IMG/VR virus record: IMGVR_UViG_3300027554_000002
Length of the DNA: 56,713 nucleotides
Origin: a virus
Reading direction: 5' to 3' (one strand)
Part shown: positions 2,623 to 54,237 of the stretch, one piece after another
Layout of the letters: every line of letters starts with the position of its first letter
How positions within the stretch are numbered: the stretch's first letter is position 1
Program-made: the position numbers and the translations under genes
Notes under the pieces: model-generated
Database searches by the model: none
Seen by the model: the letters and a program-made list of their open reading frames with translations, nothing else
What the model was told of the DNA's origin: nothing

Positions 2623-2837
2623 TAATAATATATTGTTTTTATTAAGCGGTAACATTATTTTGCTATTTCGCAGTCCTACAAGCTATGAGCCTTATTTCCA
2701 AGTAATTTGCTCAAATATTATACATTATGTTCATTATTTTAAGCGTATACTTGCGCACTGCCAGTACCCTGCCAAATATTTATTCTTTAAGTTTAAACAT
2801 GGGGTACATTAATAATTCAACTATAAAAGAGACAATT

Positions 2838-3770: not shown

Positions 3771-3952
3771 AGATCCATGCAGTAGTTTTTGACCACAATG
3801 AAAAGATATATTTGTTTCGCGCAGTCAAAGGAAATCAATTTGAAGTATTATTACAAAGCACGATGAAAGTGTTATGTTCGTGTGGATGCGCGGACGTAAC
3901 TGAAGACAATATAGACATGATACTTAAACAAGTAATGAGGATGATAGAATGA
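3767..3952 (+). CDS. Hypothetical protein (61 aa), GTG start
   Basis: GTGA overlap with the upstream stop; ATGA overlap with the downstream gene. Confidence 0.45.
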   Translation: MKIHAVVFDHNEKIYLFRAVKGNQFEVLLQSTMKVLCSCGCADVTEDNIDMILKQVMRMIE

Positions 3953-4147: not shown

Positions 4148-4178
4148 ACTTAAACAAGTGATAAGGATGATAGAATGA
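4148..4178 (+). repeat. 31-nt direct repeat, copy 2 (ACTTAAACAAGTGATAAGGATGATAGAATGA)
   Basis: 29/31 identical to 3923-3953. Confidence 0.9.
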
Positions 4179-4711
4179 GTATAACAAGACGTGGCTTCTT
4201 GCAAGCCTTAACCGCAATACCTGCCGCAGGTGTTTTATTAAAAACTGCCCCTATAATGGCAGCGCCTGATCCTATAAAAGAGATCCGGAGAATAGCGCAT
4301 GAGATAGCAGCACCTAAGAAGATAATAACAGACTCGTATTACTTGCAAGGTGTTACTAGCGCACATTTGAATAACGAGGACGAGTATGTAGAAATGCACG
4401 TTGTTAATCCTAAAAAGCGGCGACACGTTATTCAAACATTAACTATAAAAACGTTAGTAGCTATACCTGATGAATTAGGTATAGCTACTCGTGAAGAAGT
4501 CGCTTGGCGTTTTAGAGTAGGTGGTTGGGAGAACATTCTTGCTGTCGGGCATGTAACTAGAGCTATGTCTATGGTTAGTCACAGTGAAATGGTACCTGCT
4601 ACGAATCCGGATGGCTCTATAAATTACCTTGCACCTGAGGTTCGCATACCTGTTATTCATTATGAATATGAAATGATTTGCAGCCATATTTCAAGCGGTG
4701 CAATAACATGA
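4175..4711 (+). CDS. Exported protein with a twin-arginine (Tat) signal peptide (178 aa)
   Basis: N-terminus MSITRRGFLQALTAIPAAGVLLKTAPIMA/APD matches S/T-R-R-x-F-L, followed by a hydrophobic h-region and an A-x-A-like site. AAGGA RBS. Confidence 0.65.
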   Translation: MSITRRGFLQALTAIPAAGVLLKTAPIMAAPDPIKEIRRIAHEIAAPKKIITDSYYLQGVTSAHLNNEDEYVEMHVVNPKKRRHVIQTLTIKTLVAIPDELGIATREEVAWRFRVGGWENILAVGHVTRAMSMVSHSEMVPATNPDGSINYLAPEVRIPVIHYEYEMICSHISSGAIT

Positions 4712-5058
4712 TGACATTCGAACAGTTCTTATACATGAAGCTTGCTGAAGAGGCTTCAGAGGTTTCTCAAGACGCAATTAAAACAATGCAATTCGGGCCT
4801 GAGGAAAGATGTGTGGACCTTGTTGATAACAATAAAGAACGTGTCAACAAAGAAGTCAAAGATATGTTAGTTATATTGAGTTGGATTAACCCTAATACGG
4901 ACTATACTCATTTAATAGACAAAGCCCATTATGACGCCAAAATGATAAAACTCAGGCACTATTATTTATATTCTGTTTCATTAGGTTTAGTAGAAGTTCT
5001 GCCTGACGGACATAATTTTCTTTTCTATGGCTTATTAAGCGATCCTACTAAACCATAA
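4708..5058 (+). CDS. MazG-like nucleotide pyrophosphohydrolase (putative, 116 aa)
   Basis: KLAEEASEVSQDAIK helix typical of small all-alpha MazG/NTP-PPase proteins; ATGA overlap with the upstream stop. Confidence 0.45.
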   Translation: MMTFEQFLYMKLAEEASEVSQDAIKTMQFGPEERCVDLVDNNKERVNKEVKDMLVILSWINPNTDYTHLIDKAHYDAKMIKLRHYYLYSVSLGLVEVLPDGHNFLFYGLLSDPTKP

Positions 5059-8333: not shown

Positions 8334-8615
8334 ATGTTTACACATATAAAGCTCTTCAATACTACATACTTAATTCCAATAACGAAAGTAGGCGAACCTG
8401 CGCCTACTGCTAAGACACCAATTGAGTCTATTAATATTGACCCGAATACATTACCCACTGAGGAGCAAGTTATATCATATTATAATGACAATAAAATGCG
8501 CTTCGATGGGATGCAGCATGTTCTCTATTTAGCAGAGAACAATTCAAATATGGCTTCAGCACAGCCATACCACTTTAGGAAGTTAACTATAGGAGAGTCA
8601 CATGGCTCTAAGTAA
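8334..8615 (+). CDS. Hypothetical protein (93 aa)
   Basis: ORF track; tightly packed. Confidence 0.5.
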   Translation: MFTHIKLFNTTYLIPITKVGEPAPTAKTPIESINIDPNTLPTEEQVISYYNDNKMRFDGMQHVLYLAENNSNMASAQPYHFRKLTIGESHGSK

Positions 8616-9111
8616 TAAGAAACTAGCGTCTAACATCGTAAAAGAAATTAGAGAGCTCAATAGCCGCATGGCAAGCGACCAATATAGAATGGCTAAACTG
8701 CTTTTCACATTGCATACGGGTTCGTTACATTTAGAATTTGGATATGATAATTTTGCTGAGTTCTGTGATGAAGAATTACCTTGGGGCTATAACACCGCGC
8801 TTGCGAATGTTTCTATGTTTCGAGATATTAAACGGCTTAAGTATAACCAAAAAGAAGCGATCGAAATCTTGTCGCGTCTTGGGCTTAGCCGTACACGAAC
8901 GTCATTACGTAGAATGGAAAATAAAGCAACTCCAGCCAGCCTGGAAAAGTTGTTTAAGGTAAGCGCAACAACGTTCACCGTTCATATGCCTAGCTTTACA
9001 GATATGCAACGCATAGAAAAGAAGCTGCTGAAGCATGGTTTAGATGTAGCAACTAACGGACGTCGCCTTAACATGAGTGAGACTGTTCGTATTGCATTGC
9101 TAGCCTCGTAG
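8602..9111 (+). CDS. Hypothetical protein (169 aa)
   Basis: ORF track; AGGAGAG upstream. Confidence 0.6.
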   Translation: MALSNKKLASNIVKEIRELNSRMASDQYRMAKLLFTLHTGSLHLEFGYDNFAEFCDEELPWGYNTALANVSMFRDIKRLKYNQKEAIEILSRLGLSRTRTSLRRMENKATPASLEKLFKVSATTFTVHMPSFTDMQRIEKKLLKHGLDVATNGRRLNMSETVRIALLAS

Positions 9112-9148: not shown

Positions 9149-9625
9149 ATGTTTATAACTATAATTACAGACGCATCTCACTGTCCTAATACCAGCGCAG
9201 GGGGTTACGGATTCTGGATAGCATCAAAGCGCGGTAAACGTGCTGGAGGCGGTTCTTTCCGTAACAAGATAAGAGATAGCACCACAGCGGAAGCCATGGC
9301 GATTGTTAACGCTTTACATGTAGGTCTTCAAACAGGATTGTTACAAGAAGCGGATAACTTATTAGTACAAACAGATTCTAAAAATGCCATAAAAGCTTTC
9401 CAGAAAAGACATTCCAGAATAGATGATTTGAATCATGTTGTGTCTATTTATTTAAAGATAATAGAAGATAATAACTTTTCCGTAGAATTTAGACATGTTC
9501 GCGGACATACTGGAAAGAAAGACGCACGAAGTATCACGAACAGTTTATGTGATAAGCGAGCGAAGCAGGGTATGCGTATAGCCCGCAAGAAGTTTAATAA
9601 ACAACAGGAACACATTAATGAATAA
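9149..9625 (+). CDS. RNase H-like ribonuclease (158 aa)
   Basis: ITDASHC...TTAEAMAIVNAL...VQTDSKNAI...GHTG...DKRAK matches the D-E-D-D RNase HI layout. Confidence 0.7.
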   Translation: MFITIITDASHCPNTSAGGYGFWIASKRGKRAGGGSFRNKIRDSTTAEAMAIVNALHVGLQTGLLQEADNLLVQTDSKNAIKAFQKRHSRIDDLNHVVSIYLKIIEDNNFSVEFRHVRGHTGKKDARSITNSLCDKRAKQGMRIARKKFNKQQEHINE

Positions 9626-10343
9626 AGACTTATTTCAAGTAGACGTTCTAGATCATGGCTTCGTTACGCTTCGTAACCTTTCGGGACCTACGCGTCGCCC
9701 GGGTAAGCTTTTTGATGCAAGCGATATAGACCCTGCAAATACAGCGCGGATCTCTTTCGACAATTTGGACAGCGGGCGCACATATGAGGATGACTTGAAA
9801 CTTATCGAATACCTTATTAAGAATAGCCACAATACGCCTATCGAAATGATTGAAGTGTGGTTAGAGATGAAACTACCTATATTCGTCGCGCGGCAATTTG
9901 TACGTCATCGAACGGCTTGTATAAACGAAGTCTCCGGGCGTTATGTTACGTTACCTGCCGAGTGGTATATTCCTGCTGTTGTTGGTGGCAAGCCTGTAAA
10001 CGCTAAGCAAGGGCAGGAGGATAGTTTACCTTTAGAATTACAGAAGAGATTCAAACATAATTTGAATGAGACATGTGAAAAGAGCTATGAGCGATATAAG
10101 CATCATATAAATTTCGGCGTCGCGCCTGAACACGCTAGAATGTTCCTACACTTAAATCACTATACGCACTGGGTTTGGAAACAAGATTTACATAACATGA
10201 TGCACTTCTTAGCATTGCGCGATCATAGCCATGCGCAGATAGAAGCTCAGCTATATGCCAAAGTTATTGTAGATCTATTAATAGTAGCTATTCCGGATCT
10301 AATGAAACTATACACAAAGTATAAAGCAGAAAACAATGGATAA
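9618..10343 (+). CDS. thyX: Flavin-dependent thymidylate synthase ThyX
   Basis: ThyX signature RHRTACINEVSGRY (RHR-x7-S-x-R-Y). Confidence 0.9.
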   Translation: MNKDLFQVDVLDHGFVTLRNLSGPTRRPGKLFDASDIDPANTARISFDNLDSGRTYEDDLKLIEYLIKNSHNTPIEMIEVWLEMKLPIFVARQFVRHRTACINEVSGRYVTLPAEWYIPAVVGGKPVNAKQGQEDSLPLELQKRFKHNLNETCEKSYERYKHHINFGVAPEHARMFLHLNHYTHWVWKQDLHNMMHFLALRDHSHAQIEAQLYAKVIVDLLIVAIPDLMKLYTKYKAENNG

Positions 10344-12240: not shown

Positions 12241-12248
12241 GTTCTAAT

Positions 12249-12291: not shown

Positions 12292-13185
12292 ATGCGATAT
12301 CTAGCTGAAAAAACTGTTGCGCTAATTGAAAGCGTAATTAAAGAAGACCAAGGCAGTAGTTACCGGGATTACTTAGGTAAAGTTATTCCGCATATAGGTG
12401 ACGCATACGAAGCCGATAGCTTTCCTTTTAGATCTCATATGGGTGCTTCATTAATTGGACGCGAATGCCCTCGCGAAATTTGGTATAGCTTTCGATGGGC
12501 AACAGACAAGAAACACAAAGGGCAGTTACTAAGATTATTTAATCGCGGGCATTTAGAAGAAGCGCGTTTCATAGCAATATTATTGGCTATAGGTGTAGAG
12601 GTTTACCAGCAGGACGAGAACGGTAAACAATTTCGAGTTTCTGATGTTGATGGACATTTTGGCGGTAGCGGAGACGGTAGGTTGGTAGGCGTTCCGGACT
12701 TGCCTGAAGGTACGCATGCGCTTGGCGAATTTAAAACTGCAAACGATAGTTCCTTTAAGAAAATAAAAGCGAACGGAGTGCGAGAAGAAAAAAACGAGCA
12801 CTATGTACAAATGAATATCTATATGGGTCGCATGGGATTACCCGCGGCTCTGTATTTAGTAGTTAATAAGAATGACGATGAAATATATGGAGAGATAGTT
12901 CCGTATAACAAACTTATAGATGACGAGTACACTAACAGAGCGCATCATTTAGTGTATACAGAAACACCTCCAGCTAAAATAAATGAGAGCGTTGGTTTCT
13001 GGAAGTGCCGTTTCTGTGACCACAAACCTGTTTGTCATATGAAAGCTGTTCCGGATGTTAACTGTCGTACCTGTTCACTTTCCAAATTGTTAAAAGATGG
13101 GCAATGGGCCTGTGGTAGGACAGGTGAAATTTTAGACAAGCAAGCGCAATACAACGCATGCGAAGACCACACGAGATTAATATGA
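12292..13185 (+). CDS. Cas4/RecB-family PD-(D/E)XK exonuclease with a 4-Cys cluster
   Basis: GEFKT (E-x-K), upstream Asp motifs, one N-terminal Cys (GRECPRE) plus C-terminal CRFCDHKPVC (C-x2-C-x5-C). Confidence 0.65.
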   Translation: MRYLAEKTVALIESVIKEDQGSSYRDYLGKVIPHIGDAYEADSFPFRSHMGASLIGRECPREIWYSFRWATDKKHKGQLLRLFNRGHLEEARFIAILLAIGVEVYQQDENGKQFRVSDVDGHFGGSGDGRLVGVPDLPEGTHALGEFKTANDSSFKKIKANGVREEKNEHYVQMNIYMGRMGLPAALYLVVNKNDDEIYGEIVPYNKLIDDEYTNRAHHLVYTETPPAKINESVGFWKCRFCDHKPVCHMKAVPDVNCRTCSLSKLLKDGQWACGRTGEILDKQAQYNACEDHTRLI

Positions 13186-13793
13186 TAGATTTATACAGCA
13201 CCTTAGGCGTAGTTCGTGAAGCTAGTGCGATAGAAATTAAAAACGCTTACAAGAAACTAGCTCAGAAATACCATCCGGATAAAGACCCTAGTCCTGAAGC
13301 TACTAAAAAATTCCAAGACATTAAATTCGCATATGAAATTCTAAGCGATTCAAATCGTCGAGAAGTTTATAACGAATCAGGTATGACAGAGCAGGTACTG
13401 ACGCCTGAAGATGAAGCTAAGTTTATTGTGAACGCTTTTATTGCAAAGATAATGTCTGAAAACGAATACCAAAGCATAGACTACGCTAAGGATCTTCAGA
13501 TTAATATTAAGCGCGAAATTAAAGCAGGTAAGAAGTTTCTAAAACAGCAAGAAAAGATTCTTAGTCGCGTTCAAAAGTTATCGGGTAAGTTTAAAGGCGA
13601 TCCGTTCGTAGATCATTTGGAAGCGCAAGAACATATAATCGAAGAACGTTTAGAAGGTGTAAGCGCAAAGATAGAAGTCTTTGAATTAGCGTTAACGCTA
13701 GCAAACAGTTATGAATACTTTGGTGACATTGAAGAACTAGAAGTAAATCCTGAACGTTCATTATTAGAAATGTTGACATCTCTGCATGATTAA
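13182..13793 (+). CDS. J-domain (DnaJ-like) co-chaperone protein (203 aa)
   Basis: DLYSTLGV...IKNAYKKLAQKYHPDK with the HPD tripeptide; ATGA overlap with the upstream gene. Confidence 0.85.
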   Translation: MIDLYSTLGVVREASAIEIKNAYKKLAQKYHPDKDPSPEATKKFQDIKFAYEILSDSNRREVYNESGMTEQVLTPEDEAKFIVNAFIAKIMSENEYQSIDYAKDLQINIKREIKAGKKFLKQQEKILSRVQKLSGKFKGDPFVDHLEAQEHIIEERLEGVSAKIEVFELALTLANSYEYFGDIEELEVNPERSLLEMLTSLHD

Positions 13794-15612
13794 GCCAAGA
13801 GACTATCAAGTAGCTGCTAGGGAAAGTATATGGAAATACTTTCGAGACGGTAAAACAGGCAATCCTCTTGTGGCTATGCCTACAGGTACGGGCAAGAGTA
13901 TTGTTATAGGCGATTTCTTACAGTCTGTTTATACCCATTACCCAATGCAGAAAATAATGGTATTAACTCACGTTAAAGAGTTAATTCAGCAGAATTATGA
14001 AAAGCTCATAATGATGTGGACTAATGCACCGGCGGGAATTTATAGCGCGGGTTTAAAACGCAGAGAAGCAAACGATAGCATAACGTTTGCTGGCATAGGC
14101 TCTGTAGCTAAGCGAGCAGATGAGTTCGGCTTTGTTGATTTGTTAATTATAGATGAAGCGCATCTAGTGAGCCCTAACGAAGGGACAATGTATCAAAAGT
14201 TTATTAAAGCACTAAAGAAATTCAACCCTCATTTAAAAATTATAGGCTTTACTGCTACGACATACCGACTTAAGCAAGGCAGTCTGATCGAAGAGGACGG
14301 TTTATTCACAGATATATGTTTCGACTTAACAACACCCGAATCATTTAATTGGCTTATACAAGAGGGCTATCTTATGCCACTTGTCCCAAAGAAAACGACC
14401 TCGGAATTAGAAGTTGATGGAGTTACTAAAAGAGGTGGAGAGTTTGTTGCTAAGGATTTGCAGCTAGCAGTAGACCGGGAAGAAATAACTTTCGCAGCAC
14501 TTAAGGAAGCTATAGAGCTAGGTCACGACAGACACTCGTGGCTTGTTTTTACTACAGGTATAGAACACGCTATACACACAAACGATATGCTCATTAGCTT
14601 TGGCATAGATAGCGAAGTGGTACATTCTGGAAATAAAGACTATCCGATGCTTCCAGGCCAGCGAGATGAAACACTGCGCAAATTAAAAGCGGGCGAGATA
14701 CGTGCTGTGGTTAATAACAACGTACTCACAACAGGCTTTGATCATCCCGCAATAGATTTTATAATTATGTTGCGCCCATCTGCTTCTGCTGGCTTGTGGG
14801 TTCAAATGCTAGGACGTGGCACCAGGCCTATGTACGCGGAAGGGTTTGACTTAACTACAAGAGAGGGGCGTATACAAGCTATAGAAGCAAGCCAAAAACA
14901 AAATTGCCTGGTGGCAGACTTCGCAGGTAATACAAGACGCCTGGGTCCTATTAATGATCCAATGCTGCCAACTAAGCGAGGAAAAAAGAAAGGAGGCGAA
15001 GCTCCTGTCAAAGTTTGTGACAGTTGCGATTGCTATGTTCACGCCAGCGTTCGTATATGTGAATACTGCGGATTTGAATTTCACTTTGCAACACATCTAA
15101 ACGAAACAGCAGCAACAGACGAATTAATAAAGGCGGACTTACCTGTAGTAGAGTCGTTTAAGATTGACCACATTACATATGGCTTGCATCATAAAGCAGG
15201 CAAACCGGACAGCATGAAAGTTTCTTATTATGCTGAGTACCAGATGTTTACTGAATATGTCTGTTTAGGGCATGGCGGCTTTATGCAAAAGAAAGCAGAA
15301 AAGTGGTGGGAAGTTCGCGCTACTTATAAACGGGCTCTTGAGGGAGAGTCTTTAGATGATGACGAAGCTGTTGAAACGCCTAGCACAGTTAAGCGAGCTA
15401 TTGAATTAGCGTCCGCACGTATAGCAACGCCTACACATTTGCGTGTATGGATTAATAAGAAGTACCCGGAAATTATGGATTATTGCTTTGACGGTACGGA
15501 TTTCGGGCAGACGGACGAGATAGCAGACTCGCCTACTGCTGTCAGTATTGCTGATAACAGTGCTAATCCAGTAGTAGATGTAGCTGATTTTGTGGACGAC
15601 ATCCCATTTTAG
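13786..15612 (+). CDS. SF2 (DEAH-box) DNA helicase with a Zn-ribbon and an SSB-like acidic C-terminal tip
   Basis: Walker A MPTGTGKS, DEAH (IIDEAHLV), motif VI QMLGRGTRP, CDSCDC...CEYCG, and the C-terminus DFVDDIPF. Confidence 0.85.
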   Translation: MIKPRDYQVAARESIWKYFRDGKTGNPLVAMPTGTGKSIVIGDFLQSVYTHYPMQKIMVLTHVKELIQQNYEKLIMMWTNAPAGIYSAGLKRREANDSITFAGIGSVAKRADEFGFVDLLIIDEAHLVSPNEGTMYQKFIKALKKFNPHLKIIGFTATTYRLKQGSLIEEDGLFTDICFDLTTPESFNWLIQEGYLMPLVPKKTTSELEVDGVTKRGGEFVAKDLQLAVDREEITFAALKEAIELGHDRHSWLVFTTGIEHAIHTNDMLISFGIDSEVVHSGNKDYPMLPGQRDETLRKLKAGEIRAVVNNNVLTTGFDHPAIDFIIMLRPSASAGLWVQMLGRGTRPMYAEGFDLTTREGRIQAIEASQKQNCLVADFAGNTRRLGPINDPMLPTKRGKKKGGEAPVKVCDSCDCYVHASVRICEYCGFEFHFATHLNETAATDELIKADLPVVESFKIDHITYGLHHKAGKPDSMKVSYYAEYQMFTEYVCLGHGGFMQKKAEKWWEVRATYKRALEGESLDDDEAVETPSTVKRAIELASARIATPTHLRVWINKKYPEIMDYCFDGTDFGQTDEIADSPTAVSIADNSANPVVDVADFVDDIPF

Positions 15613-15671: not shown

Positions 15672-15718
15672 GGCTACAGATGCAGCAAAGCATCAAACAA
15701 CTTACAGAGGGCTTAACA

Positions 15719-16339
15719 ATGAACAAGAAGCAAACATACGCAACTAAAGCAGCAGCAAAGAAAGGCGCAATTCGCGCAAACTCGAAAACTCATAACTTCG
15801 ACATTGCTGAAGTTACTTTCCAGAAAATGGAAAATGATCGTTGGATTTGGATCGACGAATGTGATCAATCAATTTTAGATCGTACCGGCGGAGCGTTTAT
15901 CCATTGCCCTCATTGTGGTATCCATTTAGAAAACGGACTGGTCGAGCATGATTACAGCATTACACAAGCTGAAGTTGATGCAGGTGAAGCTGATTACAGA
16001 AACGATACTCACGAATTGTCTTGCATGGCATGCAATGGAGAATTTGGTAACGAGCTTTCTGCTGCACCTTGGAGCGCTAAGAAAGTAACAGCACCAACTG
16101 GCGAAGGACTTAAGATCGAAAAGAATCGCCCAGTTAGTAACGGTATCGCACGTCCAAGTGTTAGCGGAAAGTGTCGTGCAGTTTGGGATACATGTGATGC
16201 GCTACTTGCAGAACATGGAGAATTTCCGAAGCCTAAAATGCTTAAAGAAGTTATAGCTAAGAGTCACCCGGAAGTAAGTCCAGTAACAGCCACAGTCCAA
16301 CTGTACCGCTGGAGAGCTTTCCAAAGTGTTGAAGGTTAA
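15719..16339 (+). CDS. Hypothetical Zn-ribbon protein (206 aa) ending in the shared C-terminal module (paralog A)
   Basis: AGAGGG RBS before ATG 15719; CPHCG...CMACNG; module at 16121..16324. Confidence 0.65.
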   Translation: MNKKQTYATKAAAKKGAIRANSKTHNFDIAEVTFQKMENDRWIWIDECDQSILDRTGGAFIHCPHCGIHLENGLVEHDYSITQAEVDAGEADYRNDTHELSCMACNGEFGNELSAAPWSAKKVTAPTGEGLKIEKNRPVSNGIARPSVSGKCRAVWDTCDALLAEHGEFPKPKMLKEVIAKSHPEVSPVTATVQLYRWRAFQSVEG

Positions 16340-16395: not shown

Positions 16396-17151
16396 ATGAC
16401 ACGCCATGTATCAGTAGACTTAGATAATTTAAGGATAGCGTACCTGCATAATGACACCCGTATACTGCATGACATTTCTTGGATTAGTATGCGAACAGTA
16501 TCTTACTGTATTTTCCCGGTAAGCCATGATGATGGGAATTGCTTTGAACGCTTTACAGACTTGGAATTAAAATTAATTTATACGTCAATGACTGGACTAG
16601 AATGGCCACACATATTCAAACGCAAAGCTGTTATTCAAGTTCTTGTAGATATGTGCCTGGAAGCTCCGGAAACTAAAGCCAAGCTTTCTGAAACATTAGC
16701 GCAATCTGATTATGTAGACGTTAATGATGATAAAGATTGGACATACGTATATGGAGCTAAGCGTCCAACAATACAAACTGAGCTTTTCCCGTCCGTAACG
16801 GTAGCAGTAAACAAGGAAGCAGAAGCGAAAGCAGTTGCAGGTGAAACGCCAGCAGTCGCTAACAAGCCGAAGCTTAACTTGGAGCCCACACAGGGCGTAG
16901 AGCAGCGCGTAAGCACAGCAGCAGCTAAGCCTAAGCGAGCAGCCAGTAAAGCTCCTAAGGGCATTACAGCGCTTATACGTGCAGAAGCTCAGCAAGCATG
17001 GGAAGCAGCGGGCAAACCTGTAGAAAAAGACCAGTTAACAGAGATAAGAAAAGCGGTTCGTGATAAGTTTATTGAAGAAGGTGTTAATAAAAATACACTT
17101 AGCGTACAACTTTCTAAATGGCAGAAAACAATATTGGGCACTAGTAGCTAG
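16396..17151 (+). CDS. Hypothetical protein (251 aa) with a diverged copy of the shared module (paralog B)
   Basis: ORF track; GGAG upstream; module at 16951..17139. Confidence 0.65.
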   Translation: MTRHVSVDLDNLRIAYLHNDTRILHDISWISMRTVSYCIFPVSHDDGNCFERFTDLELKLIYTSMTGLEWPHIFKRKAVIQVLVDMCLEAPETKAKLSETLAQSDYVDVNDDKDWTYVYGAKRPTIQTELFPSVTVAVNKEAEAKAVAGETPAVANKPKLNLEPTQGVEQRVSTAAAKPKRAASKAPKGITALIRAEAQQAWEAAGKPVEKDQLTEIRKAVRDKFIEEGVNKNTLSVQLSKWQKTILGTSS

Positions 17152-17192
17152 ACAAAGCAAGGTAAATACACTTATACTTACCTTGCTCGCAG

Positions 17193-17232
17193 TAATTAAC
17201 TAATTAACTAACTAATTAACTAACTAATTTTA
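17193..17232. repeat. TAATTAAC / TAAC tandem repeat tract with stop codons in all three forward frames
   Basis: taattaac taattaac taac taattaac taac taatttta. Confidence 0.8.
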
Positions 17233-17256
17233 TTTAAACATAAAGGATAACTTATC

Positions 17257-17901
17257 ATGAGTACATTAAAAGAATTGAACGCTGCTGTAACTGCATCTAA
17301 CAAAGCAGTAACAGCTTCTGAAAAAGCTGTTGCAAAATTAGAAGGAGCAAAGACTCCGGACAAAGATGCAATCAAAGAAGCGAAAGCCGAATTGCGAACT
17401 GCTAAATCTGAAAACAAGAAAGCCGTCAATGCGGTGACCAAGTTTGAGAAAGCAGCAGAGCGCGAAGCTGCTAAGGAAGAGCGCGAAGCGGCTAAGGCTG
17501 AGAAAGCGAAAGAACGCGAAGCAGCTAAGCAAGAACGCGAAGCGGCCAAGGCTGCTAAAGCAGCAGAACGTGAAGCTAACGAAATGCCTGTTCAAAACGA
17601 TGTGCGTCATCCTAAGCCTGGTACCAAGTGTGATGAGTGCTGGGGTATCAACGAAGCGATTACAGTTAAACTAGGGCAGACTGCGCCTATTGCGCATGTT
17701 CTTGAAGCTGGCCGTAAAGCTGGCCTTGAAGACGCTACGCTCAAGACTCAATATGCTCGTTGGAGAAAATTCAACGGCATTACAGGTCGAGTTGTTGACC
17801 CTGTTAAGGAAGCCGCAGCAGAAAAAGCCGCAGAAGAAAAAGCGAAAGCGAAAGCGAAAGCTGCTAAGGATAAGGCTGCTAAACTAGCGAAAGCAGCATA
17901 A
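17257..17901 (+). CDS. Lys/Ala/Glu-rich protein (214 aa) with five EREAAK repeats, the shared module (paralog C) and a KA-rich basic tail
   Basis: ORF track; AAGGA RBS; module at 17587..17778. Confidence 0.7.
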   Translation: MSTLKELNAAVTASNKAVTASEKAVAKLEGAKTPDKDAIKEAKAELRTAKSENKKAVNAVTKFEKAAEREAAKEEREAAKAEKAKEREAAKQEREAAKAAKAAEREANEMPVQNDVRHPKPGTKCDECWGINEAITVKLGQTAPIAHVLEAGRKAGLEDATLKTQYARWRKFNGITGRVVDPVKEAAAEKAAEEKAKAKAKAAKDKAAKLAKAA

Positions 17902-17931: not shown

Positions 17932-17971
17932 GGCGGAAAGATTCCTCACAGTCTCTTTCCGCCTTTTTTTG
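17932..17971 (+). terminator. Rho-independent terminator (10-bp GC-rich stem plus T7)
   Basis: ggcggaaaga-N12-tctttccgcc followed by ttttttt. Confidence 0.8.
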
Positions 17972-18000
17972 TTCCCGTCTATAAATGAGATCCTCTAAGT

Positions 18001-18708
18001 ATGAAACCAAACGTTCAAGTTATCGAAAAACGAATCGCTTCTAATGGCGCCGAAATAGATATTGTAGATGTCTTTTTAACTATACAAGGGGAAGGACCTT
18101 TTACCGGTCGTCCTGCTATCTTTATTAGGCTCGCTGGATGCAACTTGCAATGTCCAGGCTGTGATACGGACTACACTAGCAATAGAGAATCTTTTGAATA
18201 CGGCAGTATTATTGATAAGGTAGTTGACTTAGATAATTTTAATGACTTTCATAATGCGCCTACTCTCGTTGTTATCACAGGAGGCGAACCTTTCAGACAG
18301 AACATTACTGCATTATGTAATAAACTTATCGAACTTACTTACGAAGTCCAAGTAGAAACAAATGGTTCTTTCGCGCCCATAGGTGCGCTAGATAAAAATG
18401 TGGTTATTGTGTGCAGTCCGAAAACTGGATCTGTAAACAAAGAAATCCAAGAACTTGCTTCTTGTTATAAATACGTCATGGCTGCTGACAGTGTAGATCC
18501 AGAAGACGGGTTACCTATACAAGCTTTACAGCATGCGGTAAAATCTAAGCTCGCACGTCCTCCCAAAGGTATGCCTGTATATTTGCAACCTATGGATGCG
18601 CAAGATACCAAAGTGAATGAGGCAAACTTAAAAGCCGTCCTCGATAGCTGCATGAAGTTTAATTACCGATTGCAAATTCAAATTCATAAAATTTTAGGAG
18701 TTGATTAA
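18001..18708 (+). CDS. queE: 7-carboxy-7-deazaguanine synthase QueE (radical SAM)
   Basis: FLTIQGEGPFTGRPAIFIRLAGCNLQCPGCDT (C-x3-C-x2-C). Confidence 0.85.
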   Translation: MKPNVQVIEKRIASNGAEIDIVDVFLTIQGEGPFTGRPAIFIRLAGCNLQCPGCDTDYTSNRESFEYGSIIDKVVDLDNFNDFHNAPTLVVITGGEPFRQNITALCNKLIELTYEVQVETNGSFAPIGALDKNVVIVCSPKTGSVNKEIQELASCYKYVMAADSVDPEDGLPIQALQHAVKSKLARPPKGMPVYLQPMDAQDTKVNEANLKAVLDSCMKFNYRLQIQIHKILGVD

Positions 18709-19400
18709 TGATACACACAGATAAGAAAGCGCTTGTCGTTCTTAGCGGCGGTCAAGATAGCGTTACGTGTTTAGGTGTTGCGCTTAAACAATATGGAAAC
18801 GTCGAGGCTATTTGTTTCGAGTATGGACAAAGACATACTATAGAGCTCGAACAAGCTGAACAGGTGTGTAGGATGTTTAACGTCAACCTTGTGGAGCATA
18901 CAATTCCTTCATTAGAAACGCTTGCTGATAGTGCGCTTATTGGAGGTAAAGGTGATGTCAGCGATAAGCATCATGACCACAAAGACTTGCCAGCTTCTTT
19001 TGTCCCAAATCGAAACGCGCTATTCATTACGATCGCTCATGCTTATGCGCAGAAGATAAAAGCTGATCATCTTATACTAGGCGTATGTGAAACAGATTAC
19101 AGCGGGTATCCAGACTGTCGTGCTGCATTTATTGATGCGATGGAAGAAACGTTAAACCTTGGCTATCAGACAGCCATTAGAATTAGAACTCCTTTAATGT
19201 ACATCGACAAAGCAGCTACTTTCCAATTAGCTGAAGATGTAGATTTCTTAAATGTTGTGTTGGAACATAGCCACACCTGCTATAACGGCATCCGTAATAC
19301 TAAACACGAATGGGGGTATGGTTGTGCTCAATGTCCCGCTTGTGAATTGCGGGCAAAAGGTTACGATGCTTATCTAGCAAATAGAAAGCAAACCGCTTAG
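18708..19400 (+). CDS. queC: 7-cyano-7-deazaguanine (preQ0) synthase QueC
   Basis: VVLSGGQDSVTC PP-loop and a C-terminal Zn Cys cluster (CYNG...CAQCPAC). At 230 aa it has no fused amidotransferase domain. Confidence 0.85.
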   Translation: MIHTDKKALVVLSGGQDSVTCLGVALKQYGNVEAICFEYGQRHTIELEQAEQVCRMFNVNLVEHTIPSLETLADSALIGGKGDVSDKHHDHKDLPASFVPNRNALFITIAHAYAQKIKADHLILGVCETDYSGYPDCRAAFIDAMEETLNLGYQTAIRIRTPLMYIDKAATFQLAEDVDFLNVVLEHSHTCYNGIRNTKHEWGYGCAQCPACELRAKGYDAYLANRKQTA

Positions 19401-19430
19401 CATAGGCTTACAACTTAAAAGGAATACTAC

Positions 19431-19859
19431 ATGAAAATAATAGCAAGCAGGTATCATGATTTCTGTATGGGGCATCGTGTTGTAGGTCATGAAGGCAAGT
19501 GCAAGAACTTTCACGGCCATAACTACCGTTTCACATTTGAGTGTGAATGTCTAACTGTTGGAGGGCTTGATGTTCTTGGGCGTGTTATAGATTTTAGTGT
19601 TATCAAGTCTACTCTTTGTCAGTGGCTTGAAGAAAACTGGGATCATAAAATGATGCTGTGGGACCAAGATCCTTATGTAGACGCTATGAAAGAAATGGAC
19701 AACGAAGTATTCTCTGTGCCATTTAATCCAACAGCTGAAAACATAGGCAAATATTTCTTAGAAGAGATTGCGCCGGAATTGTTATTAGATACTGGAGTCT
19801 CTTTAACTCGCATACAAGTTGAAGAGACTCGTAAGTGCTCAGCTATAGTGGAACTCTAA
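19431..19859 (+). CDS. queD: 6-carboxy-5,6,7,8-tetrahydropterin synthase QueD
   Basis: FCMGHRV...CKNFHGHNYRF His triad pattern. Confidence 0.8.
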   Translation: MKIIASRYHDFCMGHRVVGHEGKCKNFHGHNYRFTFECECLTVGGLDVLGRVIDFSVIKSTLCQWLEENWDHKMMLWDQDPYVDAMKEMDNEVFSVPFNPTAENIGKYFLEEIAPELLLDTGVSLTRIQVEETRKCSAIVEL

Positions 19860-19861
19860 TA

Positions 19862-20431
19862 ATGGATCGTAAAGAGCTGGAACTTATTGTTGGCCGCATG
19901 CTATTTGAAATTGAGCCTACTGAAGAAGATATCTTACGCGAAGGGCTTTTAGAAACACCTGTTCGCGTTGCCAAAGCTATGGAGCATTGGTTTAATGGAT
20001 ATGATAAAAACCCTAAAGACATCCTCAAAGTATTTGAGGATGGAGCTGAAGACTATGATCAAATGATTGTAGTTAAAGACATCCCCATCTATAGCAAGTG
20101 TGAACACCACATGGCGGATATCTTTGGGACTTGCACTATCGCTTATGTACCTAACGGTAAGATTGTAGGCTTGTCTAAATTGTCCAGGCTTGCTGACATG
20201 TACGCTCGTCGTTTGCAAGTGCAAGAACGTTTGACGCAACAGATAGCGAACGCTTTACAGAAACATCTAGAGCCTATAGGTGTTGGCGTTATGATTAAGG
20301 CACGTCATATGTGTATGGAGTCTCGCGGCATTTGCCAGCAAGGACACTGCACAATTACATCCGCTTTGCATGGTGCTATTAAAAACAACACCACAGCAAG
20401 AGCTGAGTTCTTATCGCTAGCTAGTAGTTAA
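19862..20431 (+). CDS. folE: GTP cyclohydrolase I FolE
   Basis: ETPVRVAKA, SKCEHHM, GLSKLSR, QVQERLT motifs. Start taken at ATG 19862, just after the queD stop. Confidence 0.85.
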   Translation: MDRKELELIVGRMLFEIEPTEEDILREGLLETPVRVAKAMEHWFNGYDKNPKDILKVFEDGAEDYDQMIVVKDIPIYSKCEHHMADIFGTCTIAYVPNGKIVGLSKLSRLADMYARRLQVQERLTQQIANALQKHLEPIGVGVMIKARHMCMESRGICQQGHCTITSALHGAIKNNTTARAEFLSLASS

Positions 20432-20450
20432 ACCTTGGATTGTCAGCAAC

Positions 20451-21368
20451 ATGAATATCTATATGGCGGCACTGCACTCGAACGGGTATAGACACACAAA
20501 CCGCTACGAGAAGTTAAACGATAGAGAGAAACATGTTGTTGACAATCTCCCACATCTTTTAGAATCGTACCACTACATACACAAAGACAGTTTTGTTCAA
20601 GCTATACGCGAGAAAGGTGATTTGGTTTTTCTTGATTCCGGCGCATTCTCTGCTTATACTCTAGGCGTTACTATTGACTTGCCTGGGTATTGCGATTACA
20701 TAAAAAAGAACGCTGATATACTACGCTATGAAGATAATTCTGTTATGGCTTCTGTGTTGGATGGTATTGGCGACCCTCAAAAGACTTATGAAAACCAATT
20801 AGCGATGGAGTCGTTAGGTGTACGTCCGCTGCCCTGCTTTCACTACGGTGAAGACGAACGTTATTTTGAATGGTATATGAAAAACTACGATTACATTACT
20901 ATAGGAGGCATGGTAGGCAAGTCTAGTCAAAATTTAATTAAATGGCTAGACAGATTATGGGAGCGTTATGTTATCGACGGAAGCGGTACGCCTCGTGTTA
21001 AACTGCACGCATTCGGTATTACTGCTATACCTATAATGAAAAGATATCCATGGTACAGTGTAGATTCGTCCTCTTGGATTCAGTCAGCAGCGTTCGGAAC
21101 TGTAATAACTCCGGAGTTTGGAGCAGTGAGCGTATCCTCACAATCGCCTAGCAGGCACAAAGCAGGACAACACGTAAGCACGTTAAGACATTTGGATCGC
21201 AAGTATGTGATGGATATGTTTATCGAACAAGGTTTTGACTATGAAAGGCTGTCCACAGTATACGAATCTAGAGCAGCGTATAACTTGTGGTCATTCACTG
21301 AAATAAGCAAACAACTAGCAGCAATAGGAAATAAGACTTTTCAACCCGACATACAGGAATTATTTTAA
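20451..21368 (+). CDS. dpdA: DpdA-like DNA-guanine transglycosylase (TGT superfamily)
   Basis: FLDSGAFS, LHAFGIT, VDSSSW resemble TGT/DpdA active-site segments. The gene directly follows the preQ0 pathway genes. Confidence 0.7.
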   Translation: MNIYMAALHSNGYRHTNRYEKLNDREKHVVDNLPHLLESYHYIHKDSFVQAIREKGDLVFLDSGAFSAYTLGVTIDLPGYCDYIKKNADILRYEDNSVMASVLDGIGDPQKTYENQLAMESLGVRPLPCFHYGEDERYFEWYMKNYDYITIGGMVGKSSQNLIKWLDRLWERYVIDGSGTPRVKLHAFGITAIPIMKRYPWYSVDSSSWIQSAAFGTVITPEFGAVSVSSQSPSRHKAGQHVSTLRHLDRKYVMDMFIEQGFDYERLSTVYESRAAYNLWSFTEISKQLAAIGNKTFQPDIQELF

Positions 21369-21604
21369 TGCAGGTACTAAACCAAAAACAACTAGATAGT
21401 ATCAAAAATACTATTGCTATCCAATGCTCTGAAGGTAATTGGAACGCAGATCCTTACATGCTAGGTATGGCGAACGGGATGTTATTAATCCAATCTATTA
21501 TTGACAATACTGAACCTGAATATTTAAAAGGACCTAAAAAATGGACAGGTATAAGGTCGTTAGACATAGTTAGAGAGAATCCATATAATGATAAAAGAAC
21601 TTAA
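21368..21604 (+). CDS. Hypothetical protein (78 aa), translationally coupled to dpdA
   Basis: TAATG stop/start overlap with dpdA. Confidence 0.55.
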   Translation: MQVLNQKQLDSIKNTIAIQCSEGNWNADPYMLGMANGMLLIQSIIDNTEPEYLKGPKKWTGIRSLDIVRENPYNDKRT

Positions 21605-22547
21605 ATTTGTACAGGGCGCGGTATCTAGTAAAGGTTTCACTCCAGAGCTAAGTCATTTCAAAATAAAAGAGGGTGTCGTGCAAAGCTATAACGGCTCGCT
21701 TGCATTAAGTACACCTATCGCATTTGATATCGATTGTATTCCTAAAGCTGCGCCGTTCGTTAAGGCCATTAGTAACTGTGACGAAACAGTGACTATGAGT
21801 ATGACACCGGCGGGCAGGCTTGCTATTAAATCAGGTAAGTTTCGAGCGTATATTGAATGTCTTGATCCGGGCACTGCACTTGCTCACGTTGAACCTACGG
21901 GCGATGCTTTCGAAATTAATGGAGAGGGCTTGCTTACTGCTCTTAAAACCATAGTCCCGTTTATAGGCAACGACGCTTCCAGGCCTTGGACTAATGGCGT
22001 ACTGCTAGCAGGGAACAGCGCTTTCGCTACTAATAATGTCACAGTTGTTGAATACTGGATAGGCACAGAGTTCCCGTTAAAATGTAATGTACCTAAGGAA
22101 GCTATTCGCGAGATGCTACGTATTAATGAAGCGCCTATATCTGCACAAGCAGACGAGTCTAGTATTAGCTTTCATTATGCCGATAAACGTTGGGTTCGCT
22201 GCCAGTTGTTAGCTACGGACTGGCCTGACATTAATGCTATCGTCAGCAAAGAATGCAACGCTTCTGAAATTAATCCAGAATTATTTAATGCGATAAATGT
22301 AGTTAAGCCTTTTGTTGATGATGCAGGCAGAATATATTTCAATGAGGACGTTATACGCACCAGCGTTATAGACAGTGAAGGAGCTACGCACGAAGTTGAA
22401 GGTATTCCCGATGAAGGTGTTTATAATTATGAGATGCTTAACTTGCTTAAGAATACAGCAACTCATGTTGATTTTAGTTTATATCCCAAGCCTTGTATTT
22501 TCTACGGAACTAATCTTCGAGGTGCGATAGTAGGTATGCGCACCTAA
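21588..22547 (+). CDS. Beta-clamp-like (DnaN-like) sliding clamp (319 aa)
   Basis: Repeated-domain layout with DnaN-like segments (FKIKEGVVQSYNGSLALSTPI; PFIGNDASRPWTNGVLL...FATNNVTVVEY). Sits directly upstream of the polymerase. Confidence 0.55.
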   Translation: MIKELKFVQGAVSSKGFTPELSHFKIKEGVVQSYNGSLALSTPIAFDIDCIPKAAPFVKAISNCDETVTMSMTPAGRLAIKSGKFRAYIECLDPGTALAHVEPTGDAFEINGEGLLTALKTIVPFIGNDASRPWTNGVLLAGNSAFATNNVTVVEYWIGTEFPLKCNVPKEAIREMLRINEAPISAQADESSISFHYADKRWVRCQLLATDWPDINAIVSKECNASEINPELFNAINVVKPFVDDAGRIYFNEDVIRTSVIDSEGATHEVEGIPDEGVYNYEMLNLLKNTATHVDFSLYPKPCIFYGTNLRGAIVGMRT

Positions 22548-24718
22548 TGCGAAGCGATGCTCTAGGTCTTTTTTGGGAAGACGTTAACGCAAAATTAACA
22601 AAGAAAAAAGACTTGCTCTATGAACAAGATTGGACTGAGCTTGCGCCTGGGCGTTGGATACGGGCGTATCTTATGGAACTTAATCCGGAAGACGATAATT
22701 TACAAAAGACATTATCTGTAGACGAAGCGTATCTTGAAGCTAAGGCTAGTAAGCAAAATATAAAAGCAGAACCGCCAGATCCTGTTTGGCTTGCTGATGA
22801 TTATTTGCCCGGGTTAGAAGAAGCTCTAGCTTTTGATATTGAACTGTATACGGACGAACAGCTCGTTGAAGATGGATTATCTTGGCACACCCATCCTGAA
22901 GGTCGAAAACACATACTTATATTTGACGTTGAGTCTTATATTAATTACTTTCTAGTAGCTTTTAAATCTCTAACCAACAAAAAAGTTGTGTACTTTGAAA
23001 TCTCTGAAACTGCTGTTGAAATGGATTTACGTAAACTCGCCTGGGTGTTTGAAAGCTTCTGCGTTGTAGGTTTCAACTCCAAGAATTATGACTTACCTAT
23101 ATGTTCATTGGCGCTTGCAGGTTACGGGTATGAAACGCTTAAGAAGTTTACTAATAATATAATCGTTAACGAAGAAAAGTATTGGCATTTATTGCGCAGT
23201 GCTAAGGTGAAGTTAATTGAGTGTAACCACATTGATTTATTCGACGTCGCGCCGTTACGTGCGAGTCTTAAACTTTATGGCGGACGTATACATGTGAGGA
23301 AGATGCAGGACTTACCTTTTCCATCGGAAATAAACCTGTCGTTCAATCAGGTAGCTATAACTCGCCTGTACTGTATTAATGATTTAGATAATACAGCGGA
23401 GCTCTATAATAAGTTAAGTAAGGATCTAGCTTTGCGCGAAACACTAAGCCTGGAGAACGGTATAGACTTACGTTCCAAATCTGATGCGCAAATCGCAGAA
23501 GCAATTATAGGCAAAGAAGTTGAGAGTCTTAACGGATACAAGGCATACCCGCCTAAAATAATTCCAGGCCAAACGTTTTACTATAAAGTTCCAGAGTTTA
23601 TAGAGTACGAAAGCGAATTAATGAAGTACGTTATAAACCAAATAGCTAACACTCCACTCGTAGTATCTGAAATAGGTCGTGTAGACTTGCCTAAGAGTCT
23701 TAAGGACTTGCCTGTTAAAATTAATGAAAGCACCTATCGCATGGGTATAGGCGGATTGCATAGTTCGGAAAAGTCTGTATCCCATTACAAAACAAAAGAC
23801 CATATCCTTGTAGACCGCGATGTCGCGTCTTACTACCCGCGCATAATATTAAACCAAGCATTGTATCCATCACACTTAGGAACTAACTTTCTGCAAGTGT
23901 ATAACACTATTGTAGAGCGTCGCTTAGAAGCTAAGGCCGCAGGCAACAAGACTGTCGCAGACACACTTAAAATCACTATTAACGGAACGTTCGGTAAGCT
24001 TGGAAGTAGATGGTCTATTCTGTATAGCCCGGACCTTTTAATTCAAGTTACGTTGACTGGACAGCTCGCGTTACTAATGTTAATAGAGCGAATGGAGCTT
24101 GCCGGTATTCCTGTGGTTAGCGCCAACACAGATGGAATAATAATGAAATGCCCTACAGGTAAAATAGATGAAATGGAATCTATCGTAACTGACTGGGAAT
24201 ACGACACTAACTTTGAAACGGAAGCCACTTACTACAAATCAGTCCACAGTCGCGACGTTAACAATTACATCGCTATCGTAGATGAGCCCGAAGAGAATGA
24301 AGATAAAGCAAAATTAAAAGGCGTATTTTCAGATCCAGGCTTAAAAAAGAATCCTCAAACTAATGTCTGTATTGATGCTGTAAACAACTACCTTATAGAT
24401 CGCAAGCCTATAACCACAACAATTAAAGAATGCCAAGAGCTGTGGAAATTCGTTAGCGTTCGCACAGTAAACGGAGGTGCGGTTAAACTATATGAAAAGG
24501 ATGAGCCTGGATTGTATTTAGGCAAAGCGATAAGATGGTATTACGCGCTTAATCAAGTGGGGCCCATAGTGTACGCAAAGTCCGGAAACAAAGTACCCAA
24601 GAGCGATGGAGCGAAGCCAGTAATGGAAATGCCAGATGAACTGCCTGATGATATAGATTACGACTGGTATATACGAGAAGCGTACGACATACTGAGTAAA
24701 ATTGACGTCGTAGCATAA
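22547..24718 (+). CDS. Family-B DNA polymerase (723 aa)
   Basis: ExoI ILIFDVES; motif A DRDVASYYPRII (DxxSLYPS-like); motif B KITINGTFGKLG (KxxxNSxYG-like); motif C ANTDGI. Confidence 0.7.
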   Translation: MRSDALGLFWEDVNAKLTKKKDLLYEQDWTELAPGRWIRAYLMELNPEDDNLQKTLSVDEAYLEAKASKQNIKAEPPDPVWLADDYLPGLEEALAFDIELYTDEQLVEDGLSWHTHPEGRKHILIFDVESYINYFLVAFKSLTNKKVVYFEISETAVEMDLRKLAWVFESFCVVGFNSKNYDLPICSLALAGYGYETLKKFTNNIIVNEEKYWHLLRSAKVKLIECNHIDLFDVAPLRASLKLYGGRIHVRKMQDLPFPSEINLSFNQVAITRLYCINDLDNTAELYNKLSKDLALRETLSLENGIDLRSKSDAQIAEAIIGKEVESLNGYKAYPPKIIPGQTFYYKVPEFIEYESELMKYVINQIANTPLVVSEIGRVDLPKSLKDLPVKINESTYRMGIGGLHSSEKSVSHYKTKDHILVDRDVASYYPRIILNQALYPSHLGTNFLQVYNTIVERRLEAKAAGNKTVADTLKITINGTFGKLGSRWSILYSPDLLIQVTLTGQLALLMLIERMELAGIPVVSANTDGIIMKCPTGKIDEMESIVTDWEYDTNFETEATYYKSVHSRDVNNYIAIVDEPEENEDKAKLKGVFSDPGLKKNPQTNVCIDAVNNYLIDRKPITTTIKECQELWKFVSVRTVNGGAVKLYEKDEPGLYLGKAIRWYYALNQVGPIVYAKSGNKVPKSDGAKPVMEMPDELPDDIDYDWYIREAYDILSKIDVVA

Positions 24719-42870: not shown

Positions 42871-43248
42871 TCAGATCTGACTACCGTGATTTTCAATAAT
42901 GACTGCAATCAAACGTTCCGCAAATTCAAGTAAAATGTCGTCATCTAATAATCCATTACTGTCTTTTATCTCAATTCCTTTTTCGTTTATGACTTGTGTA
43001 AGTGCGGGTAAGATATAATTATCTTTTCCTGTATCCGGATCAATATCACTCTTAACGATAAGCCGCATAGCAGCTATTATTTGAATAGCGCTGTATGCGT
43101 GTATTTCAAGAGTGACGTTACTATAGCCGGTGTGATCAACTTTGATATTAATAGCACTAACATCATTAAAAGGTTCGCCATTTCTTTCGATAATTGTGCC
43201 TAACCCGCCTATAGGGATATCGAATTTAAACTGATGACGATTGTCCAT
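42871..43248 (-). CDS. Hypothetical protein (125 aa)
   Basis: ORF track. Confidence 0.55.
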   Translation of the reverse strand: MDNRHQFKFDIPIGGLGTIIERNGEPFNDVSAINIKVDHTGYSNVTLEIHAYSAIQIIAAMRLIVKSDIDPDTGKDNYILPALTQVINEKGIEIKDSNGLLDDDILLEFAERLIAVIIENHGSQI

Positions 43249-54156: not shown

Positions 54157-54182
54157 TATTAAGCCCCGTAGTTGATAAGTCC

Positions 54183-54210: not shown

Positions 54211-54237
54211 GCGAAACTTGAGAGAAGATGTGGTAAA

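Follow-up and report, generated by a model that had tools for sequence, protein, structure and literature searches.

Modification of DNA with 7-deazaguanines is a signature feature of the phage subfamily Queuovirinae, and host systems that target 7-deazaguanine are known (PMC12137116; bioRxiv 10.1101/2025.10.29.685425). FolE, QueD, QueE, and QueC combined with DpdA give 2'-deoxy-7-cyano-7-deazaguanosine (dPreQ0), and a QueC fused to a glutamine amidotransferase (Gat) domain gives dG+ (PMC6884629). In phage CAjan, the product has been proven to be dPreQ0 at GA and GGC (PMC6884629, PMC7544227), and deletion of dpdA abolishes dPreQ0, with the loss of all DNA modification (PMC6884629). Here, we describe a predicted dPreQ0 system in IMG/VR record IMGVR_UViG_3300027554_000002, a stretch of 56,713 nucleotides (the window) that represents the essentially complete genome of an uncultivated siphovirus, with ~77 open reading frames (ORFs) in two divergent arms. 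Five co-oriented, adjacent genes in the order queE-queC-queD-folE-dpdA are followed by a small ORF, a sliding clamp gene, and a family-B polymerase gene. The cassette is the known five-gene kit in a further uncultivated lineage; an initial annotation, made from the DNA letters by themselves, was correct in substance, and the cassette is ordinary in kind. The block consists of the following features, in coordinates of the window.

17932..17970, plus strand: hairpin followed by T7, a putative intrinsic terminator that has a putative DNA-binding protein gene upstream and queE downstream
18001..18708, plus strand: queE, 7-carboxy-7-deazaguanine synthase (radical SAM, CX3CX2C); phrog_2076, TIGR04322, PF13353
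18708..19400, plus strand: queC, 7-cyano-7-deazaguanine (preQ0) synthase, plain, 230 aa; PF06508, TIGR00364
19431..19859, plus strand: queD, 6-carboxytetrahydropterin synthase (CxxxHGH); PF01242, phrog_2389
19862..20431, plus strand: folE, GTP cyclohydrolase I (CEHH zinc motif), 189 aa; PF01227, TIGR00063
20451..21368, plus strand: dpdA, predicted phage-type (DpdA1-like) 7-deazaguanine DNA transglycosylase; phrog_887, AlphaFold2 model, Foldseek
21368..21604, plus strand: small ORF of 78 aa between the dpdA and clamp genes; weak phrog_23796 match, 2.5e-4
21588..22547, plus strand: sliding clamp (DNA polymerase processivity factor); phrog_947, 4.7e-75, and a weak dnaN match, TIGR00663, 6e-6
22547..24718, plus strand: family-B-type DNA polymerase (polB); phrog_1252, 1e-205, and motifs ExoI, A, B, and C

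The initial annotation had named the five adjacent genes and quoted their motifs; every ORF lies at the coordinates listed here, and every motif is present in the translations. Along the plus strand, a helicase gene (13786-15612) is followed by three small-protein ORFs, the hairpin with its T7, queE through dpdA, the 78-aa ORF, the clamp gene, and polB. Stop and start codons overlap at three junctions: 18708 (queE/queC, by 1 nt), 21368 (dpdA/small ORF), and 22547 (clamp/polymerase). The contiguity of the cluster with the clamp and polymerase genes had been regarded as peculiar, which it is not, being the conserved layout of Queuovirinae-type phages (PMC10484667). The inclusion of the deazaguanine genes on the replication strand was described explicitly by Olsen et al. 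2023 (PMC10484667). The order queE-queC-queD-folE-dpdA-clamp-polB recurs in Alteromonas phage vB_AcoS-R7M (R7M), WildeMaa, CAjan, the uncultivated relatives L005 and L007, and those IMG/VR relatives with loci extending that far.

The window encodes all four enzymes of the preQ0 pathway (FolE-QueD-QueE-QueC), each with its catalytic motif. The NCBIfam equivalog cutoffs are exceeded by FolE and QueC; QueD and QueE have Pfam and PHROGs matches but stay under the bacterial equivalog cutoffs. QueE, in whose translation the motif CNLQCPGC (CX3CX2C) is read, matches phrog_2076 (3e-57), TIGR04322 (3.7e-28, under the equivalog cutoff), PF13353 (above cutoff), and PF04055 (Radical_SAM; 21.7 bits, below the cutoff of 29.5), and it is 49-59% identical over its full length to the proteins of R7M, CAjan, and L005. 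QueC (PF06508, 3e-71; TIGR00364, 234.7 bits versus a cutoff of 150.3) has the SGGQDS motif and a C-terminal cysteine cluster. This 230-aa protein is without a glutamine amidotransferase domain (Pfam), and it shares 61% identity with CAjan QueC and 25% with the QueC portion of R7M Gat-QueC, which has 468 aa. QueD matches PF01242 (5.5e-25) and phrog_2389 (1e-48) and contains the motif GKCKNFHGHNY, and FolE, with its CEHH motif, matches PF01227 (3e-66) and TIGR00063 (208.9 bits versus a cutoff of 181.6). The folE gene most likely starts at ATG 19862 (189 aa) rather than at GTG 19835; the start at 19862 was also chosen by independent gene calls on identical contigs, and in relatives folE begins 2-3 nt past the queD stop. 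The FolE of the nearest uncultivated relatives carries an extension relative to the window protein, with ~300 aa in L005 (8362-9264) and L007 (9034-9939), as against 189 aa for the window protein and 197 aa for that of R7M.

Among ORFs of at least 100 aa, we found no match to Gat, QueF, ArcS, or a DNA methyltransferase (Pfam and/or PHROGs) or to a YhhQ transporter, and no ORF scanned gave an ArcS or TGT-C-type match. A tblastn search of the six-frame window with the R7M Gat domain returned nothing (E>1). QueF models gave only sub-threshold matches, on FolE (PF14489, 21.7 bits versus 27.3; TIGR03139, 30.8 versus 86.9), which we regard as cross-matches; FolE shares the T-fold. The earlier statement that QueF, a fused amidotransferase, and ArcS are lacking thus holds for ORFs of at least 100 aa scanned with Pfam and/or PHROGs and for the six-frame search with R7M Gat.

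The product of the fifth gene, DpdA, has the motif LHAFGIT besides FLDSGAFS and VDSSSW, matches phrog_887 (1e-80), and is 59% identical (77% positives) to CAjan gp35 over 305/306 aa. Its AlphaFold2 model, built from 53 homologs, has a predicted local distance difference test (pLDDT) score of 86.9 and a predicted template modeling (pTM) score of 0.86. The top 50 Foldseek matches of this model in the PDB are all archaeal or bacterial tRNA-guanine transglycosylases (TGTs; probability 1.0, TM ~0.5), and its matches among viral structures (BFVD) are phage "queuine tRNA-ribosyltransferases." The initial annotation had staked its reading on the 20451..21368 product modeling on the TGT/DpdA fold, and the product does so, with a pLDDT of 87 and TGTs as all of its top 50 solved-structure matches. 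In the hhalign alignment, FLD62SGAFS falls opposite LTD89SGGFQ, the general-acid motif of E. coli Tgt, and D62, S63, and G64, which make up the DSG general acid/base motif (TGT Asp102 / bacterial DpdA [bDpdA] Asp95), are invariant in the 53 homologs. Also invariant are D104 (VLDGIGD), the GGM(V)G motif (G152-G153-M154), and D205 (VDSSSW), the last of which belongs to residues 146-210, the one segment with a match to the NCBIfam DpdA model (model positions 199-260). In the hhalign comparison of the DpdA profile with E. coli Tgt, only the first catalytic motif is credible, and the overall probability is 1.8%. D62, D104, G152-G153-M154, and D205 resemble the TGT motif DSGG and, putatively, the TGT motifs LD, GGL, and (F)DC. 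If HK243 DpdA is numbered like that of CAjan, its G217 would presumably be the invariant G216 of the window DpdA; G217E in HK243 DpdA is a published Dag1-escape mutation (bioRxiv 10.1101/2025.10.29.685425). On its sequence and its predicted model, the 20451-21368 product is a phage DpdA1-type enzyme. In E. coli, the DpdA of phage 9g puts preQ0 into plasmid DNA by itself (PMC6884629), and by analogy the window DpdA would need no DpdB ATPase partner.

From the enzymes and their relatives, we infer the chemical product, the target motif, and the extent of modification. During infection, FolE, QueD, QueE, and QueC would turn GTP into the free base preQ0 (7-cyano-7-deazaguanine), and DpdA, a predicted TIM-barrel enzyme of the TGT superfamily, would swap guanine for preQ0 in double-stranded phage DNA after replication. 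The exchange would take place at short motifs and yield dPreQ0. Given a plain QueC and no detected Gat, ArcS, or QueF, dPreQ0 is therefore the best prediction, and we consider it likely that the phage DNA carries this nucleoside. The same product had been expected before, on the model of CAjan and in preference to dG+ or dPreQ1, and the plain QueC together with the homology and fold of DpdA supports that expectation. Target motifs are GA/GGC in CAjan (PMC7544227) and GA in iggy (PMC10484667). In this genome, 25.2% of all G lies in GA and 4.75% in GGC, so that a GA specificity like that of iggy would affect ~25% of G, and a GA+GGC specificity like that of CAjan ~30%. Replacement of ~25-30% of G at GA or GA+GGC motifs would be expected to block many restriction enzymes.

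Several observations weigh against this reading. Sequence-only searches of the PDB (single sequence and profile) gave no link from the DpdA protein to TGT or bDpdA, and the match to the NCBIfam bacterial DpdA model is weak (2.9e-4), which is why the fold search was run; Pfam gave no match for this protein. D104 and D205 are candidate, rather than established, base-recognition and nucleophile residues (bDpdA Asp130 and Asp256). The zinc site CxCxxC...H of TGT and bacterial DpdA (PMC10164549) is absent, with only C81 and C129 conserved and no C-terminal cysteine cluster. CAjan DpdA is likewise without this site, and the window protein would therefore be of the DpdA1 type rather than a bDpdA or a TGT. 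The dPreQ0 system is predicted from genes, and another modifying enzyme could be encoded among the eight ORFs that have no match in any library. Even CAjan and iggy are unlike in their target motif; DpdA1 enzymes modify from 0.1% to 30% of G, and the DpdA1 of phiSM is inactive in E. coli (PMC10516641), so the extent of modification is unpredictable. Finally, the interval from the hairpin to queE has no convincing sigma-70 promoter and offers just TATAAA at 17980-17985, paired with a poor -35 element; the transcription model given below is therefore speculative.

These points leave room for other explanations, which differ in how well they fit the locus. It is improbable that the DNA bears another or a more extensively processed 7-deazaguanine (dADG, dG+, dPreQ1, or a derivative not yet described), into which preQ0 or dPreQ0 would be converted by a host enzyme or by a phage enzyme without detectable homology. 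The eight ORFs without a Pfam or PHROGs match, such as 2727-3770 (347 aa) and 48814-50358 (514 aa), could encode the latter. Several phages have traces of dADG or dG+ alongside dPreQ0, dADG occurs in DpdA-only phages such as MED16 and 7-11 (PMC6884629, PMC8306585), and some DpdA2 enzymes are promiscuous (PMC10516641). However, the window has no Gat domain (tblastn, E>1) and, in the ORFs scanned, no QueF, ArcS, DpdL, DpdM, or DpdN-like match, and CAjan, with the same enzyme types at 59-61% identity, contains dPreQ0 with dADG, dG+, and dPreQ1 below detection (PMC6884629). In the phages just mentioned, dADG is a trace, at <=0.13% of G in MED16 (PMC8306585), and we regard it as a weak rival because it is a trace product in comparable siphoviruses (PMC8306585).

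We consider it quite improbable that the cassette is inactive or leaves only trace modification and little protection. The span of DpdA1 levels, from 0.1% to 30% of G, and the inactivity of the phiSM enzyme in E. coli (PMC10516641) would fit this explanation, as would the avoidance of many 6-bp palindromes in the genome, which suggests a restriction pressure incompletely relieved by modification. Yet the catalytic motifs are intact and invariant in the 53 homologs, all five ORFs are full length, and the same phage genome recurs on nine ~56.7-kb contigs with identical QueC; moreover, the closest characterized types, CAjan, iggy, HK243, and NL2, replace ~16-32% of G (PMC6884629, PMC10484667, bioRxiv 10.1101/2025.10.29.685425). 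We give almost no credence to a purely auxiliary metabolic role, in which the module would raise preQ0 or queuosine for host tRNA and phage translation and the DNA would not be significantly modified. A queuosine supply was put forward in the R7M paper (PMC8265664), and E. coli mutants in the Q pathway are complemented by the preQ0 genes that phage 9g carries (PMC6884629). Against such a role, a DpdA1-type transglycosylase is encoded within the same cluster, and the ORF library scans found no QueF, QueA, or QueG to complete queuosine synthesis. In addition, 9g DpdA fails to complement tgt yet inserts preQ0 into DNA, and the CAjan knockout loses its modification (PMC6884629). Our preferred reading remains the predicted replacement of G by dPreQ0 at short motifs.

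Restriction may also be countered by the avoidance of sites. In the window, G/C-containing 6-bp palindromes are depleted (observed/expected, 0.73-0.79) and AT-only palindromes are not (0.98), and ATGCAT, GCGCGC, CTGCAG, AGTACT, GTGCAC, and GTCGAC have 0 copies each versus 5-21 expected. The depletion therefore points to site avoidance as a second, passive anti-restriction trait. The initial annotation had noted that no methyltransferase is present, and none was found among the ORFs scanned; its further claim that the modification would be the only DNA-level anti-restriction device was overstated in view of this palindrome avoidance. The possibility that depletion is aimed at sites lacking GA/GGC, which the modification could not protect, was rejected (observed/expected, 0.73 versus 0.79; p = 0.47). 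EcoRI sites number 2 versus 15 expected, and two palindromes are over-represented, TCCGGA (25 versus 7) and CTATAG (32 versus 16).

The hairpin at 17932-17970, GGCGGAAAGA-(12 nt)-TCTTTCCGCC and then T7, ends 30 nt upstream of the queE ATG. It is GC-rich, with a 10-bp stem and a 12-nt loop, and the stem is present in both the minimum free energy and the centroid folds. At -15.8 kcal/mol, it is second by energy across the window, and it is the top terminator candidate among those that are both intergenic and co-oriented. That a terminator before the cluster is peculiar, as had been proposed, is not supported: a hairpin or terminator lies directly upstream of queE in most relatives. Just 5' of queE, GC-rich hairpins occur with T-runs in CAjan, WildeMaa, and L005 and without them in R7M and L007. 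Within 120 nt upstream of queE, 39 of 42 IMG/VR relatives have a best hairpin of <=-10 kcal/mol; the median is -16.5 versus -12.8 in control windows inside queE, and the upstream hairpin is the stronger in 32/42 (Wilcoxon p = 7e-6). A T-run was judged by eye to be present at ~11 of the relatives' upstream hairpins. Hairpins also mark other plus-strand boundaries (the intergenic regions beginning at 12241, 16340, and 17152). In the intergenic region 17152-17256, the hairpin (CAAGGTAAATACACTTATACTTACCTTG) is followed by tandem TAATTAAC/TAAC repeats (TAATTAACTAATTAACTAACTAATTAACTAACTAATT).

The queE gene was initially said to have no Shine-Dalgarno sequence; instead, it has a weak one (GAG, -2.7 kcal/mol) that is within the normal range of the genome, where the median is -3.9 kcal/mol and dpdA, the helicase gene, and many other ORFs are as weak or weaker. 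We take the queE start to be correct because its N-terminus and length are conserved in relatives. No Rfam family reached the gathering score anywhere in the window. For the queE leader, we rejected a preQ1 riboswitch or another known RNA, the only match there being a sub-threshold antisense P31 small RNA (28.8 bits versus 40), which is most likely a hairpin artefact. Sigma-70 promoters in the window were not enriched over shuffles (31 found versus 31.7 expected). The best sigma-70-like site of the region (21561-21589, 11/12 matches) lies inside the small ORF and overlaps the clamp start codon, and it is therefore probably due to chance. The plus-strand intergenic regions share no motif beyond AT-rich 8-mers. 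The CAjan and iggy papers do not mention a promoter or terminator, and at the level of titles and abstracts we found no paper on Queuovirinae transcriptomics that names either.

We infer the mechanism of transcription from the layout. The hairpin and T7 probably act as a leaky terminator or as an RNA 3'-end/stability element, forming a boundary to the three upstream putative DNA-binding protein genes. The genes from queE to polB would form a translationally coupled block, expressed through partial read-through or from a weak or activator-dependent promoter. Considering the tight packing and the overlapping stop and start codons, the precursor and the transglycosylase are therefore probably made with the replication machinery. 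A dedicated regulatory gate, in which the conserved hairpin is a terminator overcome by phage-controlled read-through or antitermination, is conceivable but rather doubtful; if true, it would tie the start of preQ0 synthesis and of DNA modification to replication-gene expression across the phage group.

The surroundings of the block include the following genes.

13786-15612, plus strand: helicase
15680-16339, plus strand: first of three consecutive ORFs just upstream of the hairpin
16396-17151, plus strand: second of these ORFs
17257-17901, plus strand: third of these ORFs
4678-5058: MazG-like NTP pyrophosphohydrolase
9618-10343: ThyX thymidylate synthase
13158-13793: DnaJ-domain protein
2727-3770, 4175-4711, and 8602-9111, plus strand: ORFs without a Pfam or PHROGs match
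40846-41328, 42871-43248, 48814-50358, 53860-54252, and 54314-54688, minus strand: further ORFs without such a match (124-514 aa across both strands)

The first and third ORFs upstream of the hairpin share a ~70-aa C-terminal domain (both match phrog_11298, and the first also matches phrog_21588); the second has a similar C-terminal motif by eye, and its only PHROG match is phrog_7864. CAjan gp46, which bears the annotation "FtrA domain," shares 54% identity with region 17578-17805, and the ORF that contains it (17257-17901) has long K/A/E-rich repeats. Two of the three equivalent ORFs in R7M are labeled "transcriptional activator," and these three ORFs may be DNA-binding regulators of the downstream block. 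In CAjan, WildeMaa, L005, and L007, dpdA and the clamp gene are likewise separated by a small ORF (55-78 aa), and none is present in R7M; by tblastn, ORF 21368-21604 has no similarity to its positional counterparts in relatives, and its sequence is not conserved. The polymerase motifs (ExoI, FDVES; A, DVASYYP; B, KITINGTFG; C, SANTDG) are conserved in relatives. Motif C (PolB residues 525-531), which has NTD where DTD is usual, is identical in R7M, CAjan, L005, and L007 and is therefore a group trait. The genes for ThyX, the MazG-like protein, and the DnaJ-domain protein form a set also present in R7M. The 347-aa ORF at 2727 is the first gene of the plus arm, after a 454-bp AT-rich divergent control region (2273-2726). 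The leaders 3927-3948 (AACAAGTAATGAGGATGATAGA) and 4153-4174 (AACAAGTGATAAGGATGATAGA) of two neighboring ORFs (starts at 3949 and 4175) are nearly identical, which suggests a local duplication or a shared translational signal.

A DNA-level search of GenBank phages gave no match. The best DpdA matches are those of R7M (69%), followed by Nipunavirus, Seuratvirus, and related phages (~59-61%). Judged by its proteins, the phage is related to the subfamily Queuovirinae, with R7M as its nearest cultured relative; it has the bidirectional layout of this group, a deazaguanine cassette on the replication strand, and R7M homologs for 27/77 ORFs. The proteins shared with R7M (mean, ~48% identity) include those of the replication, head, and terminase genes and not of the tail tip. 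A protein identical to its QueC is encoded on nine contigs of ~56.6-56.7 kb, two of which differ in start point, which suggests a complete, circularly permuted genome. Among the 42 IMG/VR QueE relatives, 29 have a plain QueC and 9 a Gat-QueC, and the rest have truncated loci or no detectable queC. At the same position, the nearest uncultivated relatives have a plain QueC (L005 and L006) or a Gat-QueC (L007). The window QueC is 59-61% identical to those of the plain-QueC phages L005 and CAjan, and the other cassette proteins are closest to those of L005, L007, and R7M.

The phage adds one lineage, known without cultivation, to a well-described group, the siphoviruses in which 7-deazaguanines protect the DNA. 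Plain-QueC (dPreQ0-type) and Gat-QueC (dG+-type) cassettes alternate among the close relatives of this branch, which is the same alternation as is known between Seuratvirus and Nonagvirus. The prediction implies that DNA of such phages may resist restriction digestion and disturb nanopore base-calling, and that it may be a target of modification-dependent defenses, e.g., GrwAB or Dag glycosylases.

Among the closest known systems is that of CAjan (Seuratvirus, Queuovirinae), in which FolE, QueD, QueE, a plain QueC, and DpdA1 are encoded in the same gene order, with a terminator-like hairpin ahead of queE and a small ORF, clamp, and polymerase after dpdA. Additional small ORFs and a gene for a preQ0 transporter of the YhhQ type, however, break up the CAjan cassette, whereas that of the window is compact and without YhhQ; CAjan infects E. 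coli, and the two phages share no DNA-level similarity. R7M (Amoyvirus, Queuovirinae) has 69% identity in DpdA, 75% in FolE, and 59% in the clamp, and it has a similarly compact cassette flanked by helicase and DnaJ genes and three small DNA-binding-type ORFs. It differs in its 468-aa Gat-QueC, with dG+ as the predicted product (PMC8265664), and its QueD and tail/baseplate module are not detectably shared with the window. Pseudomonas phage iggy and the Nipunavirus phages NP1 and PaMx25 likewise combine DpdA and the preQ0 pathway in a bidirectional genome with the modification genes on the replication strand (PMC10484667); DpdA of the NP1/PaMx25 type is ~61% identical to the window DpdA, and that of iggy has a strict GA motif, with 16.5% of G modified. 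More distantly, bacterial DpdA (the Dpd system of Salmonella Montevideo) and TGTs share with the window DpdA the TIM-barrel TGT fold and the DSG general-acid motif, and presumably a two-aspartate double-displacement mechanism (PMC10164549). The window DpdA is ~100 aa shorter than these enzymes, has no zinc site, and is only marginally similar to them in sequence, and in these respects it differs from the bacterial enzymes as a predicted member of the phage DpdA1 type.

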